From the NCBI GenBank assembly GCA_951406725.2, contig OX597818.1, positions 72,044,001 to 72,108,000 of the forward strand: DNA of 64,000 nucleotides. The letters are read 5' to 3'. The translations under genes were made by a program, and so were the position numbers. The notes beneath the pieces are model-generated. The model saw only the letters and a program-made list of their open reading frames with translations. It was not told where the DNA came from and made no database searches. This document shows, piece by piece, positions 2,625 to 47,756 of this stretch (positions within the stretch are counted from its first letter, which is position 1; each line of letters begins with the position of its first letter). The DNA is from Octopus vulgaris (lineage: Eukaryota).

Positions 2625-3660
2625 GTAGCAAAATATTTTCATGTAATACAACACAGACATTTAAATGGATAGGTTTTTTTCTAAGGAGCTGGGCAGTACA
2701 TGTCAGAATAAGCTTTGAATTTCTCTGAGACATGGCTCTCCTGGGATGTTACCTAGATGTTTCTGACAACCCTTTTTTTTCATCATACTTAGAGCACCGA
2801 CAATAACAGGAACAGTTCTCGCTTTAAGATGCCACATCTTTTGTATTTCAACTTCTAGGTCCTTATATTTACTTAATCTGTCAAATTCCTTTGCAAATAC
2901 ATTTTTATCAGTGGGGACAATTACATCTATTGGTGTACACGTATTTTCTTTCCTGTCTTTAATAATTATGTCTGGTTGATTAGCCGGGATCGATCTGTCA
3001 GTGTTGACTGGAAAATCCCAGAGGATTGTGACATCTTTACCGTCAACGACTGGCTCAGAATGATGTTCATATCAGTAAGCGGGAGTGCTGATTTTGTAGT
3101 GTTTACATATTTTCTAATGTAAATAGTGTTCTACCCTATCGTGGCGATTGTTGTATTCCTTTGGGGTAAGCACTGGACATCCCGAGATGGTCTATTGTTC
3201 CGTCAAATGTGTCGCAGAATCTGCGTTTAAGGTTATAACCATTTTGAAAAAAGTTAGCCAGGTAGTTTTTGGTAAGCGAGCTTTGTTCTTGTGCCGCTAA
3301 TATGAAACCTTCAGACTCTGCTTTCAGTCCTGAACTTCTCAGCAGCTGAAGGGTTGTTAGTATATACTGTCCATGCAGAGGCTTCTGGCTCCACCGTTCT
3401 TCAATTTCTTTCTGCCCGTTCTTTTTTGTAGTCTGCTTGATCAGTTTTGCTTGTTTGATGGCAGTGGTTTCAGTTTGTTCATCTAATTCAGGGTTAATGC
3501 GAATATGCAAGCTTCCTTGACAATAGAATGTGATCTTTTTGCAGTTTTAGTGTTTGCACATAAACCACAGCATCCAGTCGTCTGTACTAGATAAGTACCT
3601 ATTCATTGCTATTGTGGAAGTCTGATAGCATAGTTCAGCCTACATCATTCCTCTTCCACC
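2625..3660 (-). mobile_element. R4/Dong-like non-LTR retrotransposon 3' half (CCHC finger plus restriction-like endonuclease), degraded
   Basis: Minus-strand motifs GGRGM, KPLHGQY, LKAESEGFILAAQEQ, RHDRV, ILWDFPVNTD..ANQPDIII, KYKDLEVEIQKMW and VPVIVGAL. Confidence 0.85.
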
Positions 3661-12097: not shown

Positions 12098-12440
12098 GTC
12101 AGGTCAGGAGTCTCATCACAAGCTGATGAGACCTGCTGCTGGTACCATGTAAACTAATACTACCTGTTTTATGGTCGAATGGTTAGCGACTAAAATGGCT
12201 CCCTACCTGAGAAGGCTGTCTAGACACCCAACAGGACTAAAAACAAGACCTCTAAAACGGCGAATGAGCGGGTGGAGATGGCAATGGCAAACCACCTTAA
12301 TATCTTTGTCAAGAAAGCACTAGGTACAACGAAATAACGCTATTGTTTCTTCCAACGGGAGAACTCGCGCTTAATTGGGATGATTTTAGTTGCCGTGTCA
12401 TCAAAGAGTTGTAAAAGCGTCCGATACATGATGATAACGA
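12098..12440 (+). mobile_element. Short non-autonomous RTE-derived bipartite element (RTE 5' UTR-like head plus RTE 3' tail)
   Basis: The first 100 nt are homologous to the head of the 25383-25930 element. The 3' part has GATGGCAATGGCAAACCACC...TATCTTTGTCAAGAAA, resembling the RTE/BovB-type 3' stem-loop, and a short ATG/GAT tail. Confidence 0.65.
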
Positions 12441-13039: not shown

Positions 13040-14305
13040 TGTTCCAGTCCATGTCTAACAGGATTAGCTAAACCCTTTTTAAGTCAAGTTTTGTGGGTAT
13101 TATGGTCTATTTCAGTAGGAAGTTCTTGTTGAGCCAGTTGTATCCAGGCATAGCTGGCTTATCCGACATTCCTTGAAGAAATTTGTCCAGATTCCGTTTA
13201 AATGTGATAAGATCCTTTTCCTCTTTGATCTGTTAAATAGGGTTGGGCCTGCTAAAGAAAAGAAATTGTTTTGCACTGTATTTATGTGTTGTGATCCTGA
13301 ATCGGGTAGGGGATGTTCTAGCCTTGGATGAATTCTTAAACTAATGTTGATGTCATTTGGGCAATGCTGGTGCTATATTCATCACATCATGCAAATGATG
13401 TCTCGCTCACTGCGGCGCCGGAGAGAACAGAGTTTCAATGTTTTAAGGCGGTCTTAATAATGGTGATCAGTCATGCCCTTAATTCTTTTAGCGAATGCTT
13501 TGAGGTGATTCAATTTTCGAAATGTTTTGTTTTGTATGGGGAGACCACAGCGGGCAGCAGGATTCGAGCAGTGGCGGTACAAATGAAGAGAAAAGAGGAA
13601 TGATGACACCTTATTCTCTGGACCAGAAGGTTCTTAGGATCCAGGAGCTCATTCTACGAGCTATATCGACCTTATTGTTGATGTAGGCAAGCCAATTGAG
13701 ATTGTTATCAACAATTATTCCTAGGTCTCTGATATTAGTAGATGCTGCGAGAGGAACTCTGAAGGAAGAGAGTATGTTCGTTTTAGCATAATCTTTTTTC
13801 CAAAATGCATCAGCTCAATTTTTCCCTCGTTTAGTTGCATTTTGTTTTTGTCTGCCCATTAGCTTATATCATTTAGATCAGACTAAAGTTCAGTTCCGTC
13901 TCCTCCATTGGTAATTTTCTAGAGTTGGAGTCATCAGCTGATATTTTCACATTGCTGTGTTTTATGACGCTGGAAAGATCGTTTATATAGGCTACAAACA
14001 GAAGCGGGCCCAAGACATTCCCCTGAGGTACACCACTGGTGACTTTTGCTGGGCTTGAGGGGATTCCACCGATCACAACAAGTTGTGTTCTGTTCTCTAG
14101 GAAATATTCAATCCAGGGTAGTAGTTTGCCGTAGATTCCAACATTTGACAATGTTGACAGTAAGATATTGTGGTCGACTCTGTCGAATGCTTTACTGAAG
14201 TCAAAATATATGAGTTTGAACTTGATCTCAAATCTTTAAGGACATCATCGATGTGGCGTAAGAGCAGTGTTTGACAGTCCTTGCCTCAGCTGAAGCCATG
14301 CTGGT
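13040..14305 (-). mobile_element. CR1/L2/Jockey-group LINE RT fragment with 3' end, degraded
   Basis: Minus-strand motifs NQHGF, YFDFSKAFDRVDHNILL and VTSGVPQGNVLGPLLFVAYINDL...ADD, followed by the usual RDLGIIVDNNLNW block. Confidence 0.85.
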
Positions 14306-14747: not shown

Positions 14748-15589
14748 CATATTATAGTATATGAATACAAGGACACACACATACACGCGCATATATTATG
14801 TTTGTGTGTACATGTGTTAAAAAGAAATACTATTGTTTTGATATTCGAATGATATGCGTTTCCGTCGAAACTAATCTTTACTCGATAAATGCTCACTTTA
14901 TATTGTGTTCCTTTAAGAAGAAATAATAGAATAATGGAACCCATTCTACACTGGAAAAAACAAAACAACAAGAAAACTAAACAATGAAAAAATTCAACAT
15001 AATCAAAAACGAACAAAATCTCAGCAACGAGCTCAAAAGTGTTTTCCGCCATCTTTTCCAGTTGATTGCTTACCTGAATTTTGTTATTTGTTGTTTAAAA
15101 TCGTTATTTGTTTATCGTATTTGTAAAAGTCATGTCGTTTCGCTAATTAATTAGATGAATATGGTAAACAAACGTCTAAATAATTCTTCTTGTGGGAGTT
15201 GTAACAACGATACATTGCCATTTCTGGCAATGTAATGTGACAGTAACAGAAAAAAAAAAAAATTGCAGCGACGTGAAAAAAGAAGACAAAGATAAAAAAA
15301 AAGTAGTAAATAAAAGAAGAGTCGAAGAGTCTAAGAAATAATAAATACAAACATAATTTGAGATAAAAAGAAAATTAGGACCGGAGTAATTTAGTGAATG
15401 ATGTGAAGGAAACAAGAAAAACGGGACAAACAACATGAATAAAAGGCGCAGGAATTACTTCTAGATTCTCCAGTTTTCTTCGTTCATTATCTTAAACGAG
15501 AACTAGATACTTGTGTTATTTAAATATGCACATACACACACACACACGCAAACACATTTATTTAAATACATGCATATATATGTATACAT

Positions 15590-16820
15590 ACATCATCATC
15601 ATTCATCATTGTTCGACCGTGGTCGAGACAATGGAATTTACCATGTTGCGCCAGACTTCACGGTCCATCATAGCATTACGGAGGTCCTGTTGCTGGATGC
15701 CTGTATGTCTGGAGATTACATCAGGGTAGGAGAGTGTGCGCCCTCTGGTGTTGCGAGTAGATGGCTTCCAGAGGAGAAGAGTAGAAATTACTTCTTTTTC
15801 AGCTCTACAACAATGTCCAGCAAACTGGACTCTCCTACCTTTCACAAGAGATGACACAGGTGGTAATTTCCCATATATTTGCATTTTAGTTGGATGGCGC
15901 CTCCACGAGAGATTTTGAGCTCTCATAAGGAGGCGAGTGTAGGTTCCATCCAACCGCCTCTCAAGCTTCTTTGATAACGTCCAGGTTTCTGAGCCATATT
16001 GTAGGATTGGTTCGACTGTGGCTTTGAATATTTCAAGTTTGAAGTCTCTACTTAGATTTGATGACCAGATCTTATGCATGTCATTACAGGCTGACCAGGC
16101 CATACCCTTTCTAGTTAGAAAGTCTTTTCCAGATGATGATATGTATGACCCAAGATATTTATAATCAGAAACCATATTTAAAGGTGCACTGTTGAGAGTG
16201 TGGATGATGCAATCACTGTTGGACAGGCACTTGTTTATGTATTCAGTTTTGGTCTCATTGAGGTAAAGACCTACACAATTTGAGGCTTGTTCAAGAGATT
16301 GTAAGAGAGACTGGGCATTGGAGAGAGAATCACTGATAAGAGCGATGTCGTCAGCAAAGTCAGTGTCTGTCAAGTACTCAGCTGGGTGTCTGGAACTTCT
16401 TCTTGGTTTTATTTCAAAGCCCTTGCCAGAGATGGTATCAACTGACATACGTAGCACATAATCAACAACAATGATGAAAAGAAATGGGGCGAGTGTGTCT
16501 CCCTGCAGTATTCCGGCCTCGATCGAGAAAGATGATGTTTCTCCATCAGGGGTTAAGATGGTTGAAGACGTATCTGTGTAGAGGACCTTGATGGCAGAAA
16601 TAATTTTGTCTGGTATCCCATAGAGCTTAAGGATTTCAAACATCTTGTACCTATCTACAGAATCGAACGCTTTAGAAAAGTCTACAAATACCATTGCAAG
16701 ATCGCGATTAAATGCTTTTGATTCTTCAATAAGTCTGCGCAGGCATAGTATCTGGCTCAGCGTTGAGCGCCCATGTCTGAATCCATTTTGGTTCTTTCGG
16801 AGCAAAGGTTCAACAAAAAG
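15590..16820 (-). mobile_element. 5'-truncated RTE-clade LINE
   Basis: Uninterrupted RT ORF ending in a stop followed directly by a (TGA)n tail; the 5' end is truncated against a (TATG)n tract. Confidence 0.93.
15606..16816 (-). CDS. RTE-type reverse transcriptase (RT core plus C-terminal domain), 5'-truncated, no native start
   Basis: About 400 stop-free codons with QNGFRHGRST, FVDFSKAFDSV, GILQGDTLAPFLF, DFADDIAL, YKYLGS and LQYGSETWTL. The first ~22 aa of the listed ORF are microsatellite. Confidence 0.9.
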
Positions 16821-16825
16821 GACAT

Positions 16826-17318: not shown

Positions 17319-18385
17319 CAGGGGTTGGACAAAATAATGGAAACACCTTAAAATTTCAAATAAATTTATTTCAATAATAGGGTAGGACCGTCTTTGTCAG
17401 TAATTACATCTTGAATTCTACGAGGTATGGATCTTGTACAAAGTTTGAATTGGTTCCAAAGGAATTTTTGTCCATTCTTTATCTAAAACAGTCTCCAGTT
17501 CTTGTAGTGACTCCTTACTTGCTTTCTAAAATGCACCAGAAGTGTTCAATAATATTGAGATCTGGGGAGTGTGATAATCAGATAAGATGTTCAACTTCAC
17601 CAGAAAGTTCCTCGTGCCATTCAGTAACAATTTTAGCTGAGTGAATTGGTGCATTATCATCTTGAAAAATTGTGGTTCCAGCCGGAGACAGTTCCGCAAC
17701 CATAAGGTAAATTTGATTAGATAAAATGCTTAAAAAGTATTGACTATTAATTCTGCCATGAAGGGAAACCATTGGGCCGGTGGATTACCAAGATATAACC
17801 CCCCAGGTCATCACAGATCCTACTCCACGTTTAACAGTTGGAAGAAGGCAGTCTTGGTCAAATGCTTCTTTTGGCTGTCTCCACACGTATACTCGGTCGG
17901 TGGTCGGAAATAAGGTAAAGGATGACTCATCCAAGAAAATAATGTTCTTTCACTGCTCTAGGGACCAATTCTGTCGGTTTTACTTCACTCTAAATGCTTT
18001 GCAACGTTTGTTTCCGAAAGTGGTGATTTTCTGATTGCAGCCCTCTCGTGAAATCCGGCTTTGTGCAGCTCCTGGCGAACAGTTTTTGTGGAAACTGGGT
18101 TCTCGAGGTGGTCATTAAGCTCTGCAGTAATTTTGGGAGCTGTACTTTTGTGATCCTTTCTAACAATTTTTGCCCTATCTAAAAGCTTTGGTCTTCTTCC
18201 GGAGTTTTATTTCGACGATGATGTTTTTCCCGCTTTCTCAAAGGCTGTCATTACTTTTGAAACAGTACTTGTTGATACACTAAACTTTCGGCTGTTTTCG
18301 TTACACTAGCGTCTGACATACGAGCACCAACAATTTGACCTCTTTAAAAGTCCGATAGATCTGTCATTTTAGTGAATTTTAATTT
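17319..18385 (-). mobile_element. Second copy of the DD36E Tc1-like element, truncated with one TIR left
   Basis: TA + CAGGGGTTGGACAAAATAATGGAAACACC and colinearity with 275-1405. It encodes FQDDNAPIHSAK...HSPDLNIIE with an in-frame stop. Confidence 0.92.
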
Positions 18386-18624
18386 TCAGTAATTGGGTCG
18401 ATTTATGTAGCTACATCTTCCTCAACAAAAGTTGGTGTCCTCAAGCCAATGATTTTCTGGTATTGCCAAACTCTGGATTTCTAAATGAGTAACGTTATAT
18501 CCGTCCTGGTGTGACATTTATTAATTTAGACCGCGTGGTGTGGTTCTTAAACAGCTGTGAAGTGTCACTCAATTAAAATAGATTGCAATGCCACAATATA
18601 TGTATAGACTGTGTAAATATCAAT

Positions 18625-22643: not shown

Positions 22644-23920
22644 CAGGGTGTCCTAGAAAGATTTACCCACGTTTAAAACTCTTCCTAAAAAATATTGGTT
22701 CAGGTAATACTATCTACATTTTACAAAAGGATTTGCATGTTTTTTGTTCGTGTGTCTATTATTTCTTTCGTCTATAACAGGTTTGTAAACAAACATAGCG
22801 TCAAAAGCAAAACGTGACCTGATTTTCGCTTTGAAAACAACTAGAGTGAACATCAAGGACATAACAAAACAGTTAAATGTGTGCCGTAAAACAGTGTTCA
22901 ATATCTGGAAGCGATATACGTAGTCCGCTACTACCTCAAGCAAGCCAATCCTTGGAATGAAACGATTAATTCGTACCAAACAAACTGTTGAAGCTTTGAG
23001 AAAGCGAATAAACCGAAATCTCCGCAGGAGTACAAGAAAAACTGCAAAACCTCTTGATATTTCGAAATCATCTATGCACGGAGTTTTAAAGAGAATTTAA
23101 AACTAATTGCATACAAGAAATAATCCCGGCAGTTAATTTCAGTAGCTTTCAAGAAGAAACTGCTCGACAGGGGTAAAAATCATGTTAGCTGAGATGAAGC
23201 GCGCTGCTAACAAAGTGTTGGTCTAGTCGGACGAGATCTTCACCGTGGAGGCAGTTACCAACAGGCAGAATGACATGGTTTATGCACGTAATGCAGGAGA
23301 CCAGCCCGAAGGTAGTAGGAATCATTTACACCGTCAGAAGCCAGCTTCACCCATAGTTTGGGCCGCAGTTGCATCTGACGGGTCCAAGTTTCTCTTGATC
23401 TTTGACGCTGGCATCAAGGTCAACAGCGAAGTTTATGTTGCAGTGTTGAATGAGAAAGTGTTACCTTTGATCACAAAAACCTTTGGTGACCGTTATATCT
23501 TCACTCAAGACAGGGCTCCAGTCCACAAATTGAGTTTGAAACAGGTGATACATAGAGCATTTCAGCGGTTTTGGGGTCAAGAGGATATGGCCTCTATCAA
23601 ATCCAGCCATGAATCCCATGGACTTTTCTATCTGGTCCAACTTAGAGAGTAATATTTCTCCTCGCTTCTATTCAAATGAGTCAGATCTGAAAAAAGCCTT
23701 TCTATCTTCATGTGTCAAGTTGGATAAAGAGGTGATACGGCGCTCAAGTACCTCAATGACCACTCATTTTCAGGCTATGATCAAGGCGAAAGGTGGTCAT
23801 TTTGAAATGTAATTACAGGAATTTAAATTAGAATGTGTGTGCCAAAGCTCATTATCCTATCTTAAGTTTATTTTGAATAATTAAAACATATCAATGGGTA
23901 ACTCTTTCTGGGACTCCCTG
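22644..23920 (+). mobile_element. Full-length defective Tc1/mariner element, DD37D (maT)-like
   Basis: TA + CAGGGTGTCCTAGAAAGA...TACCCA with the inverse TGGGTAACTCTTTCTGGGACTCCCTG + TA. Transposase motifs SDE..FTVE, VWAAV, FTQDRAPVH, NPMDFSIW and KAKGGHFE are present but frameshifted. Confidence 0.88.
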
Positions 23921-24934: not shown

Positions 24935-25372
24935 CATTGGGAGAAGAAGAAACGAAACGTAACGAAACGAATCGAATCGAATCGACGCGAGGGCGCTCAG
25001 TCATACAATAGTGTAATAAATAAAATATATGCATACATACATATATATATGTACGTACCTACATCTACATGTATATATACATGCATATATAAATATTTAT
25101 ACGTGAGTACAGGACACCACAAATAGACGCAGAACTCAACGAGAACGAAAACGTAAAAACAAGCATGGAACGGACCTTTCTTTACAACGAAAAAACAGAG
25201 TACAAGACAAACTACACAAGGAAAAATCCCCTTCATCAGCTGTCCCTAGTTCAACTCCAGCGTGTTTCGAAGGTGAGGACAGAACACGACTCGTCGAACT
25301 AGCCCTTCCTGCGAAGAAATTAAAGAAAATTACTTCGCAGAGGGGTAAAAACAAGGAAAGAACAAAATATAT
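24935..25372 (-). mobile_element. Family P1 repeat (probable Penelope-like pseudo-LTR relic)
   Basis: 24940-25225 is nearly identical to 39830-40085 and related to 9440-9665. Confidence 0.6.
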
Positions 25373-25382
25373 ATACATACAC

Positions 25383-25930
25383 ATGGTGGCTGCCTCCTCG
25401 TTAACGAATATGCCCATTGCACGAAGCTTAATCAATGTTGTTAGCGTGCAATGCCTGTGCAAGAATATTTTTTTTGGAAGTGAGGAAAGTTTGTGCACTG
25501 AGTCAATCCCACTCACTAAGCAACAGCAGCCATAATCCGAAAAGAAGAACAAGTCAACATCATCGGTATCCACTGAGCCGCAGGTTTTATGTTGGAGTTA
25601 TCCCAGTTACCTGAGTTACCTTCTCCTAGAAGGATGCCCTAACAAAGGCTAGGAGTCCTTCACTCTCAACGGTTTAACCGCGCGATCAGGTATTCAGTCC
25701 GATTATTTCTATGTCCCCGCACATGATACAGCCTTAAGACATTTATTGGATGGCCGTTGATCTCAAATTTCCTCCGCCCTATGACGGGTTTTCATCCCGC
25801 AGGGTGTCCAATAAACACCCACCTCACCAAGCAAGCTTGGTGGGGTTGCCGGTTTAGTCGCCGACGACCCGACCATGCAACAGGTTGTACTGGGTTACAT
25901 ATTACCAGTAGCACTTGGAAGTGACCTGAC
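25383..25930 (-). mobile_element. RTE 5' UTR-derived element with a highly structured head
   Basis: Contains GGGCATCCTTCTAGGAGAAGGTAACTC, similar to the RTE 5' UTR block ..CTAGGAGAAGGAAAACTC. Partial copies lie at about 31110-31165 and 33133-33185, and the head is shared with 12098. Confidence 0.6.
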
Positions 25931-36485: not shown

Positions 36486-37043
36486 AGGAACCACAATATT
36501 CTACAAACAGCCAAACGCCTTCTACCAATTCTACAGCAGTCCCCATGTCTCCGACAAATAATCAAGGAACAACAAGTAATCAACAGCCGAAGGTAACCAC
36601 CAAATTTTAAGAAACTTCTAACCAAAGCAAAATTTGCGTCAGAAGAAGAAATAATGCAAGTTACCAAATGTGGAGACCCTCGATCTGATTTAATAGAACA
36701 GGGACCAGCCAAAAAATTCAAAAATGACAAAGAATTAAAGATGAATGCAAATATGAACTGTAAAAGCAAAAACCTGATATATTGTATCACATGCCCGCGA
36801 TGCAACGAACATTATATTGGGGAAACAAAAACGAAACTAACCAACCAAGTAAATGTGCACAGACATCAAATAAAACATCCCGCACTTAGATGCATACCAT
36901 CTAGCGATCATTTGGACACCTGTGCACAAGGAAAATTTACTATTTTTCCTCTTCATAAAATAAATGAAGAGAACGACCTTCTCCGGAAGGCAAAAGAAGA
37001 ATACTTCGTAAGGTCTCTGGGCCCGAAACTAAACCGGAAATAG
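36480..37043 (+). mobile_element. Penelope-like element C-terminal fragment (linker plus GIY-YIG endonuclease)
   Basis: SRR*PPNFKKLL, CKSKNLIYCITCPRCNEHYIGET, VHRHQI, DHLDTC and KEEYFVRSLGPKLN; 5'-truncated at (TA)n. Confidence 0.9.
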
Positions 37044-46311: not shown

Positions 46312-47756
46312 TGTTGTGTGGACGCCCCCAGACGATGAAGTAGGCTAGCCCAATACGTAGATATAGAGGGAGAAGTCTAGACGTGAAGTGTCGAGAGTTG
46401 AGTAGAGGTCATCCGAAAGTGTGATATAACAGTGGCGACGAGGTTTCGAATAGTACCGAAATGGAAGAGTTACTGAAAGCAGTTGTAAAACAACAGGAGC
46501 AGCAGCAACTACAGAAGTTAACAGAATTGTTACTGCAGTCGAGAAATACGACAGAATCATTTTCAGCAGATGGTGTTGCAAATTCCATCGAAGAATTTCA
46601 CTACAATCCGGATGAAGGGACTACTTTTGCTGCATACTACAGACGATACGAAGACATATTCCAAGAGGATTGCGAGAGATGGTCTAGTGAAAGGAAGGTA
46701 AGGCTCCTTTTGCGAAAGCTTGCTACTCCGGAATACGAAAGATTTTGTAACTTTATTTTGCCGAGAAAGCCCGCGGAATTGTGTTTTGGTGAAATGATAA
46801 ATATTTTGACTAATATTTTTGGCGAGAAAAGTTCGCAGTTTAACATTCGATGTTTAAATTTAAAGAAAAACGAGTCCGATGATTTTGTTACATATGCCGG
46901 TATGGTTAATAAGGCTTGCAAAAAGGTTTAAACTCGAAGAATTAACGCCAAATATGTTCAAGTGCCTAATATTCATTAAAGGGCTGGTGGCAATGGAAGA
47001 CGCGGAAATTAGAAAAAGAATATTATCAAAGTTGAATCAAGATGTGAAACTGACTTTGCAGAATGCATCTGAGGAATGCCAACAAATAATAAATCTTCGA
47101 GATGATACAAGAAATATAAGAGACAAGAATAATAATGTACAAATGTGTAAAGAACGTACAGAAAGAAGGAAAAACTAAATTCAAAACGGTGCTTTGGTTG
47201 CGGAGATCGACATTTGAAGAAAGATTGCCCCTTTAAAGATAAAACCTGTTTTAAGTGTGGTAAAATGGAACATATACAGACGAAATGCCGGTCAAAGAAA
47301 ATGGTAAAACAGAAACTAGAAAATTCTGGAAGAAAAATGAAAATTTTCAACACAGATGACAAAGTGTATTTTAAAATAACACAGAAGGTATTTAAACCAA
47401 TTAAAAAAAAAAGATATACCAAAAACCAAGAGAGGCGAGAAGAACCAATGGATTTATGGTATGATTTGTTCTAGGTCCCAGAACCTCAAGCAAAAGCAGA
47501 ACCGACACGTAGGTCGAACAGGAAGAGAAAACCTACAGAAATGATGGAAATTAATTAACTCTAAGAGAAAAAGATATGCCAGTTTCTCATCGAGGAAATA
47601 TAAATGATAAATTCGGGTTTAAAAAACCCAAAAGGAGGAGATGTTGTGTGGACGCCCCAAGACGATGAAGTAGGCTAGCCCAATACATAGATATAGAGGG
47701 AGAAGTCTAGACGTGTCGAAAGTTGAGTAGAGGTCATCCGAACGTGCGATATAACA
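46312..47756 (+). mobile_element. Gag-only Ty3/Gypsy (Mag-like) LTR retroelement with very short LTRs
   Basis: LTRs 46312-46431 and 47642-47756 (TGTT...AACA), PBS TGGCGACGAGG at 46433, PPT AAAAGGAGGAGA and a degenerate 5-bp TSD (AAGTA/GAGTG). Confidence 0.92.
46461..47290 (+). pseudogene. Frameshifted gag with two zinc knuckles
   Basis: IEEFHYNPDEGTTFAAYYRRYEDIF, KVRLLLRKL, FKCLIFIKGL and CFGCGDRHLKKDC / CFKCGKMEHIQTKC. Confidence 0.85.

Follow-up and report, generated by a model that had tools for sequence, protein, structure and literature searches.

In the sections of the literature drawn on here, RTE, R2, and Ingi retrotransposons carry 5′ ribozymes that free the elements from host transcripts (PMC5786205 citing Ruminski 2011; PMC8501958). 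A 5′ processing step is needed by both RTE and R2 elements (PMC5786205, PMC8501958, PMC12222951), and the 5′ UTR of R2 may also confer exonuclease resistance (PMC12222951). Exoribonuclease-resistant RNAs (xrRNAs) were described as characterised only in viruses, with eukaryotic xrRNAs as an open question, in section 7 of a 2021 review (PMC8374639). Those of subclass 1a contain a three-way junction, a pseudoknot (PK1), a U-A-U base triple, and a discriminating C between the P2 and P3 stems (PMC8374639, PMC7527734, PMC12081666), together with a second pseudoknot (PK2) of 2–7 bp (PMC8571300). The ring of the ZIKV xrRNA is sealed by the A37–U51 pair (PMC12397905), and the halting point of Xrn1 is 4–5 nt upstream of the fold (PMC12081666, PMC3968743).

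The stretch of Octopus vulgaris DNA analysed here (64,000 nt; the window) contains two elements, at 12098 (+; element 1) and 25930 (−; element 2). The original prediction that both start with GTCAGGTCA, and that both have a hairpin of differing length at the same place, a listed shared core, and a CAGGT/ACCTG pairing, was confirmed on all of these points. The motif, proposed at that time to be an uncharacterised ribozyme, is predicted here to combine a three-way junction with two pseudoknots and to match the subclass 1a xrRNA of flaviviruses, that is, a known RNA fold, as judged from its sequence, in a new, cellular setting. P1 and P2 had already been seen, whereas the P3 stem and the pseudoknot between the L3 loop and the downstream strand had been missed; the variable hairpin of element 1 is also longer than noted, extending to CAGG...CCTG. 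Copies of the motif fall into families (F1–F6 in the genome and M1–M5 in metagenomes), with elements 1 and 2 belonging to F1 and F2, respectively. The GTCG..CGACTAAA hairpin, which had been listed as common to both elements, is indeed shared by them, but is not part of the core, because it is missing in F5, F6, M1, M4, and M5.

Table 1. Predicted features of the xrRNA-like cores and their host elements in the window.
Feature	Position	Strand	Remarks
xrRNA-like core, F1 copy	12098..12174	+	Model R1, 60.4 bits; copy itself in training set
G (PK1, pairs with C12160) and U (base-triple position)	12098..12099	+	Roles assigned from subclass 1a structures
P1, 5′ strand	12100..12104	+	Partner 12162-12166
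P2, variable hairpin	12105..12135	+	−13.3 kcal/mol
C between P2 and P3	12136	+	Subclass 1a discriminator
P3 stem and L3 loop	12137..12159	+	Stem 12137-12142 with 12154-12159; loop 12143-12153
S4	12170..12174	+	PK2 partner of L3
Downstream hairpin and CTAAA	12174..12199	+	P4-like, non-core; kept in F1-F4, M2, M3 only
Whole F1 non-autonomous copy	12098..12439	+	About 340 bp; short GAT-repeat tail
5′-truncated F6 LINE copy	15580..16825	−	Without core; RVT_1; 430-aa RT frame; 92% to L122
Intact xrRNA-like core, F2 copy	25873..25930	−	Rfam RF01415, 23.1 bits, E 0.13
P1 of F2 core	25928-25924/25885-25881	−	
P2 of F2 core	25923-25912	−	
C between P2 and P3 of F2 core	25911	−	
P3 of F2 core	25910-25905/25893-25888	−	
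S4 of F2 core	25877-25873	−	
F2 bipartite non-autonomous RTE element	25367..25930	−	Matches autonomous copy L128

The comparison system is the flavivirus subclass 1a xrRNA (ZIKV xrRNA1, MVEV xrRNA2, and DENV; Rfam families RF01415 and RF03547), with which the retroelement core shares the 5′ GUCAGG, a 5-bp P1, a variable P2, the junction C, P3, the U-A-U triple positions, a G-C PK1, a PK2 of 4–6 bp between L3 and S4, a similar P3/L3 length (17–19 nt between the anchors in correctly parsed retroelement copies and 13–17 in flaviviruses), and, in F5, the occurrence in tandem copies. The exact positions of the triple and the numbering of PK1 are those that we presume to apply to the motif. Element 2 has every subclass 1a feature visible at the sequence level. 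The three-way junction is present, with P1 paired to 99% and P3 to 96% and with three P3 pairs changed on both sides, and P2 folds in 22 of 23 copies. The single C between P2 and P3 is found in all 23 aligned copies (imposed by the search pattern for some), in 25 of 30 F1 copies collected free of the pattern, and in 27 of the 28 F2 copies listed. PK1, formed by the 5′ G and the junction C, is G-C in 23/23 and, being invariant, is compatible with the alignment rather than proven by it. All three nucleotides of the U-A-U triple occur in 11 of 11 family representatives, the triple itself being invisible in sequence, and an A in L3 (11/11) and a U after P1 (10/11) fit the A37–U51 pair by our assignment.

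The two systems differ in two pairs, the first of P3 and the inner one of P1, which are U-A in the retroelements instead of C-G, and in the retroelement P3, an uninterrupted 6 bp unlike that of flavivirus subclass 1a. In the host retroelement a protein-coding RNA carries the core at its 5′ end, whereas the flaviviral fold lies in the viral 3′ UTR. Folding energy by itself is unremarkable (z of −1.25 and −1.06 for the two window elements), and pseudoknot-free ViennaRNA predictions give P1 a probability of at least 0.5 in 8/23 retroelement copies versus 12/17 flaviviral ones. The copy at 12098 is decayed, the triple A being changed to G, one pseudoknot pair to G-U, and three positions of the P3 3′ strand away from the F1 majority; having lost the triple A and P3 pairs, it is probably dead. 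We are highly confident that RNA of the intact motif would fold into a ring; the fold is very likely an xrRNA, and resistance to Xrn1 is, in our estimate, likewise very likely.

An Rfam search, one of the checks suggested with the original prediction, gave 0 matches over the window at the gathering threshold and a sub-threshold lead at a relaxed one. The lead, in which element 2 aligns at full length with RF01415 (Flavivirus_SLIV), scores 23.1 bits against a gathering score of 54.5 (E 0.13, all families considered) and is the only non-microsatellite Rfam match over the motif at the relaxed threshold. Element 1 had no RF01415 match at that threshold, and 20 further loci had no xrRNA-family match at E up to 10. 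With a best score of 23.1 versus 54.5 bits, and with no such match in the other non-viral loci, the motif falls below the gathering score of RF01415/RF03547, as do some true flaviviral matches. On its features the motif would thus be placed in subclass 1a, with an Rfam score short of the threshold. RF01415 run over the genome returned 0 matches among the 64 of 84,788 candidates scored, an uninformative result.

A covariance model, also among the suggested checks, was built, and the changes in P3 and PK2 are compensatory across families. The claim that RTE-derived elements have a conserved, structured RNA placed precisely at their 5′ boundary is supported, with a covarying structure. Among 23 non-viral copies, 88.2% of the cells are paired versus 81.9 ± 1.1% after shuffling and 27–47% after sliding, and 35 cells are changed on both sides versus 15.4 ± 2.6 in shuffles, counted over pairs not fixed by the pattern. 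Two of the five covariation measures, those counting pairs or types, lie within the shuffled range (396/500 and 412/500), and the copies compared are related in sequence. Variation is confined to the outer P3 and PK2, neither of which is in the pattern; P1, PK1, and the junction are invariant among retroelements and partly pattern-imposed, so that P1 and the junction provide no covariation evidence. PK2 takes five states across families (CAUG/CAUG, AAUG/CAUU, ACUG/CAGU, GCUG/CAGC, and CCUG/CAGG), and the M3 and M5 copies, with a one-column alignment offset, were counted as unpaired although their PK2 forms.

These compensatory changes, which persist despite the turnover of P2 and of the downstream sequence, argue against a passively copied motif, whether a neutral remnant of some viral 3′ UTR once captured or a resemblance arisen by chance. 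Also against it, Rfam showed no further flaviviral 3′ UTR family adjoining the motif. The free decay of individual copies and the weak Rfam scores would agree with passive copying; this explanation is already disfavoured, and we consider it extremely improbable. The core is maintained between LINEs with 31% reverse transcriptase (RT) identity, and a metagenome element whose endonuclease identity is 25–31% has it as well.

The covariance model (R1) was trained on non-viral copies only, part of which had been found with a flavivirus-compatible pattern (F1 and F2 had not), and was run over 41 loci. Of its top 15 matches, 10 were flaviviral xrRNAs; the other 5 were motifs in three contigs resembling RNA viruses, and two of these contigs have a capsid-domain match. 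R1 also recovered second xrRNAs of flaviviruses that had escaped the pattern (L267, 16.5; L326, 13.4; L260, 12.5 bits); these second xrRNAs score 8.6–16.5 bits with rough E-values, and two sit on Rfam SLIV calls. A weak R1 match in the window (22764–22825, 13.7 bits), lacking a convincing core, was rejected.

Over the Octopus vulgaris genome, the core pattern has 1541 exact matches versus 0 for the reversed control, and its long-P2 version has 97 versus 0; the shared start is not due to chance, as the core-pattern count and the alignment of element 1 to the F3 LINE (below) show. The core-pattern matches represent at least six families with different P2 hairpins. Five RTE-type families open with the core, four of them with full-length LINE members, and the RT proteins of the LINE families starting with it are 31–45% identical. 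A pattern with the flavivirus-identical P1 (C-G) has a single genome match. A loosened pattern was rejected (113 matches versus 18 in the control), most of its matches belonging to an unrelated repeat without P2, in which the upstream sequence is conserved and R1 gives at most 15.8 bits. First-look candidates numbered 256 for F1 and 547 for F2, with 40 scored per family; F1 copies measure about 340–400 bp and are about 80% alike, the corresponding F2 values being about 565 bp and about 92%. The G is the exact starting point of conservation in F3 (30 copies), M1 (21), and F1 (14 of 30 scored); it had itself belonged to the seed of this boundary analysis, and upstream of it only a T bias is left in all three. 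The 5′ region of element 2 is also found in four sequencing runs under four other organism codes.

The 5′ ends of F2, F6, M1, and M3 copies show frequent 5-nt GTCAG repeats, and in the same ends the first 12–30 nt are partly duplicated (e.g. L105, L112, L121, L123, L213, and L255). These repeats and partial duplications suggest a reverse transcriptase restarting at the structured end. In F6, one GTCAG repeat is part of the true P1/P2 register.

Both window elements had been described as RTE-derived. This holds for element 2, whose nt 1–501 match the 5′ end of the autonomous RTE LINE L128 at 89% and whose nt 500–564 match its 3′ end at 82%; as read from these alignments, it is a 5′ plus 3′ deletion derivative of L128. 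Element 1 is linked to RTE by its 5′ part only, 141 nt of which align to the 5′ end of the F3 LINE (73%, E 4e-18), and an autonomous partner of F1 was not found in 30 loci. The bipartite non-autonomous RTE LINEs, in the portion of PMC5786205 considered, are likewise 5′ plus 3′ internal-deletion derivatives; their conserved RTE domain lies in the middle of the UTR, whereas the 5′ end kept by element 2 carries the xrRNA-like fold.

The features of RTE-clade LINEs (a single ORF with AP endonuclease and RT, and a short-repeat tail) are present. F3 and F6 have full-length members with both domains, and full-length F6 members, unlike the truncated window copy, do begin with the core. The autonomous partner of F2 matches F3 in tblastn, with an RT identity of about 45%, and F6, at 31% RT identity to F3, may be a sister clade. 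Copies of F3, a 4-kb LINE, are often 5′-complete (43 exact 5′-end versus 132 exact 3′-end matches). The F3 copy L403 has an intact 1109-aa ORF that starts from Met at nt 601, ends with a C2H2-like motif, and is preceded by 10 upstream ATGs in the 5′ UTR. Because these ORF and UTR dimensions equal those published for RTE-2_OV (1109 aa; 5′ UTR of about 600 nt; PMC9115989), we infer from dimensions alone that F3 is this brain-expressed element. The RTE-2_OV sequence was not found in the supplementary files searched, and in the passages of PMC9115989 examined the word ribozyme occurs 0 times and a 5′ structure is described nowhere.

F5 is an LTR family, in which the core is internal, in one to three tandem units, upstream of a purine tract. 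Its 152-bp terminal repeats begin with TG and end with CA, the purine tract precedes the 3′ repeat, and a 5-bp duplication is found in 3/8 loci with two repeat matches. Seven F5 loci (L090, L095, L096, L099, L110, L114, and L140) have the appearance of a small TRIM-like LTR-type element of about 600–780 bp. The terminal repeat is broken at the same site in L096 (about 1837) and L097 (about 1799) by a LINE-start-like sequence, possibly a target-specific retrotransposon.

A new self-cleaving ribozyme that frees the element from host transcripts would suit the exact 5′ position of the motif, which is also the position of the HDV-like ribozymes of R2, RTE, and Ingi and of the twister T-variants of Schistosoma Perere-3, as far as these are treated in PMC8501958 and in PMC5786205 (citing Ruminski 2011). 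The ribozyme claim of the original prediction was nevertheless unsupported. At E up to 10, neither the two elements nor 20 further loci had a match to any Rfam ribozyme family. Descriptors of HDV, twister, and hammerhead ribozymes, scanned over 12 representatives without a positive control, were negative or gave unshared matches. For the HDV-like fold, 10/12 representatives had no match, 2/12 had unshared permissive matches, and the CUAA segment, a candidate J4/2, is missing from five families. The twister descriptor (UAA loop, L4 CCCAAGC, and GAGGG, as tabulated in PMC8501958) matched 0/12, and the downstream hairpin does not qualify as twister-like, its loop being unconserved across families. 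The hammerhead core (CUGANGA plus GAAA) matched 0/12, the CUGAUGA of element 1 lying inside the variable P2 stem. Moreover, cleavage at the tandem internal copies of F5 would cut the genome RNA of the LTR element itself, and the conserved nucleotides belong to a non-catalytic fold, mapping position by position on the subclass 1a xrRNA. The motif is probably not a ribozyme, and a new self-cleaving one that releases the element appears highly improbable.

We consider it reasonably probable that the xrRNA-like motif blocks the 5′-to-3′ exoribonucleases Xrn1/Xrn2, thereby trimming read-through transcripts to a protected, unit-length RNA. A longer read-through transcript would be decapped or cut, and the exoribonucleases would degrade it up to the knot; what remains would be a stable RNA of unit length, to be translated and used in target-primed reverse transcription. 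The uncapped RNA would presumably be translated without scanning, and the reverse transcriptase, arriving from the 3′ side, would be expected to copy through the knot; xrRNAs let reverse transcriptase through from that side. In F5, the tandem internal copies would yield subgenomic RNAs, as in flaviviral 3′ UTRs. These families would thus reach passively the end for which their relatives use 5′ ribozymes, and the two devices probably do the same job, the release and protection of a unit-length uncapped template. The ribozymes self-cleave to leave a 5′-OH, whereas in the motif no catalytic core was found and the exonuclease end would be a 5′-monophosphate a few nucleotides upstream.

We slightly favour the reading in which the transposition template owes its 5′ end to trimming to the knot and not to a promoter. 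Its main rival is an internal Pol II promoter of the element's own at the G, with the xrRNA fold shielding the RNA after decapping but not setting its 5′ end. A promoter would account for the boundary at the G itself, and PMC5786205, in the part considered, argues that bipartite LINEs are transcribed by Pol II from their 5′ extremes. It leaves the 10 upstream ATGs before the ORF unexplained, and the G is templated, because the internal F5 copies also have it; we regard this rival as unlikely. Under trimming, since Xrn1 halts four to five nucleotides upstream, donor-flank bases might enter new insertions. For full-length F3 copies, 16/22 had both ends and 9 a usable duplication (one by eye), and the bases between the target-site duplication and the G numbered 0, 0, 0, 0, 2, 2, 4, 4, and 5 (extras in 5/9); the four copies without extras agree with a promoter. 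Truncated F3 copies had a junction in 23/30 cases, of which 5 were usable, with extras of 3, 6, −1, 4 or 0, and −2 (2–3 of 5); the nuclease footprint is not established, because extra bases occur in truncated copies too. Extras of 1–5 were found in 3/25 F1 and 5/21 M copies, with backgrounds of 20/600 and 6/420, and (TATG)n targets would account just as well for the TAT upstream of F2.

The xrRNA-shaped fold might instead be under selection because the RTE protein or the ribosome binds it, in template recognition, second-strand priming, or cap-independent translation, with nuclease resistance being incidental. The retention of the 5′ part in bipartite derivatives and the clustering of partial 5′ duplications at the motif are consistent with such a role, and a 5′ twister has been linked to translation (in the part of PMC8501958 considered). 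The same core is, however, found in an LTR element, whose proteins are different ones, and in LINEs sharing 31% RT identity; we judge a binding site to be highly improbable as the primary role. Past the core, at about nt 75–165, two to three more hairpins were observed in elements of F1–F4, M2, and M3, including 12174–12260 and 25872–25790 (−) in the window, one of them with conserved ends and variable length; these downstream hairpins could possibly form a translation or protein-binding module.

Outside the genome, the pattern matched at least 119 metagenome stretches and 106 viral stretches. By eye, 27 metagenome loci were assigned to dispersed repeats of the five types M1–M5, and in L163 the core is followed by an AP endonuclease 25–31% identical to those of the LINEs in the genome. 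Seventeen viral contigs of flavivirus size (10.4–11.1 kb) have a pattern match near the 3′ end, their retrieval being partly due to the construction of the pattern, and Rfam flavivirus 3′ UTR families were found in 7/7 of those tested, in some cases with an xrRNA family at the matched site. Of the flaviviral loci 13/17 have the full predicted structure, and of the host-repeat loci 12/27; the other pattern matches have it in 4/92 and 5/89. Subclass 1a-like motifs were also observed in contigs of 3.7–4.8 kb (L210:2701–2769 and 3037–3097; L279:1148–1227 and 1495–1555; L274:1499–1559), which look like non-flavivirus RNA viruses. In L210 (weak match) and L274, an ORF with a Viral_coat S-domain lies upstream of the motifs; L279 resembles L210, and in L210 and L279 two motifs are located upstream of an additional ORF.

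No report of an xrRNA in a retroelement was found in the literature searched (titles and abstract openings, with few subscription journals). It is our tentative and rather doubtful proposal that flavivirus-type xrRNAs are a functional, mobile module of animal retroelements, replacing ribozymes at RTE 5′ ends, producing LTR subgenomic RNAs, and sharing ancestry with those of viruses. If so, the shared ancestry would have come about through exchange between retroelements and RNA viruses, which bears on the origin of the flaviviral fold. The RTE LINEs with xrRNA 5′ ends would include the brain-expressed RTE-2_OV, and trimming by a host decay enzyme would be added to promoters and ribozymes as a route to LINE 5′ ends. 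These would be the first cellular subclass 1a xrRNAs, in thousands of copies that could truncate and stabilise host transcripts, and RNA decay inside such transcripts could be stalled by the genomic copies, of which there are more than 1,500. The families offer ready-made xrRNA candidates with natural compensatory variants.

Several other remnants were observed in the window. A degenerate Tc1/mariner-like transposase remnant was recognised by eye at about 17350–18450 (−), and an RT fragment from another LINE is located at 13873–14235 (−). A weak GIY-YIG match (Penelope-like) lies at 36597–37043 (+), and a DUF7083 match at 46425–46931 (+).
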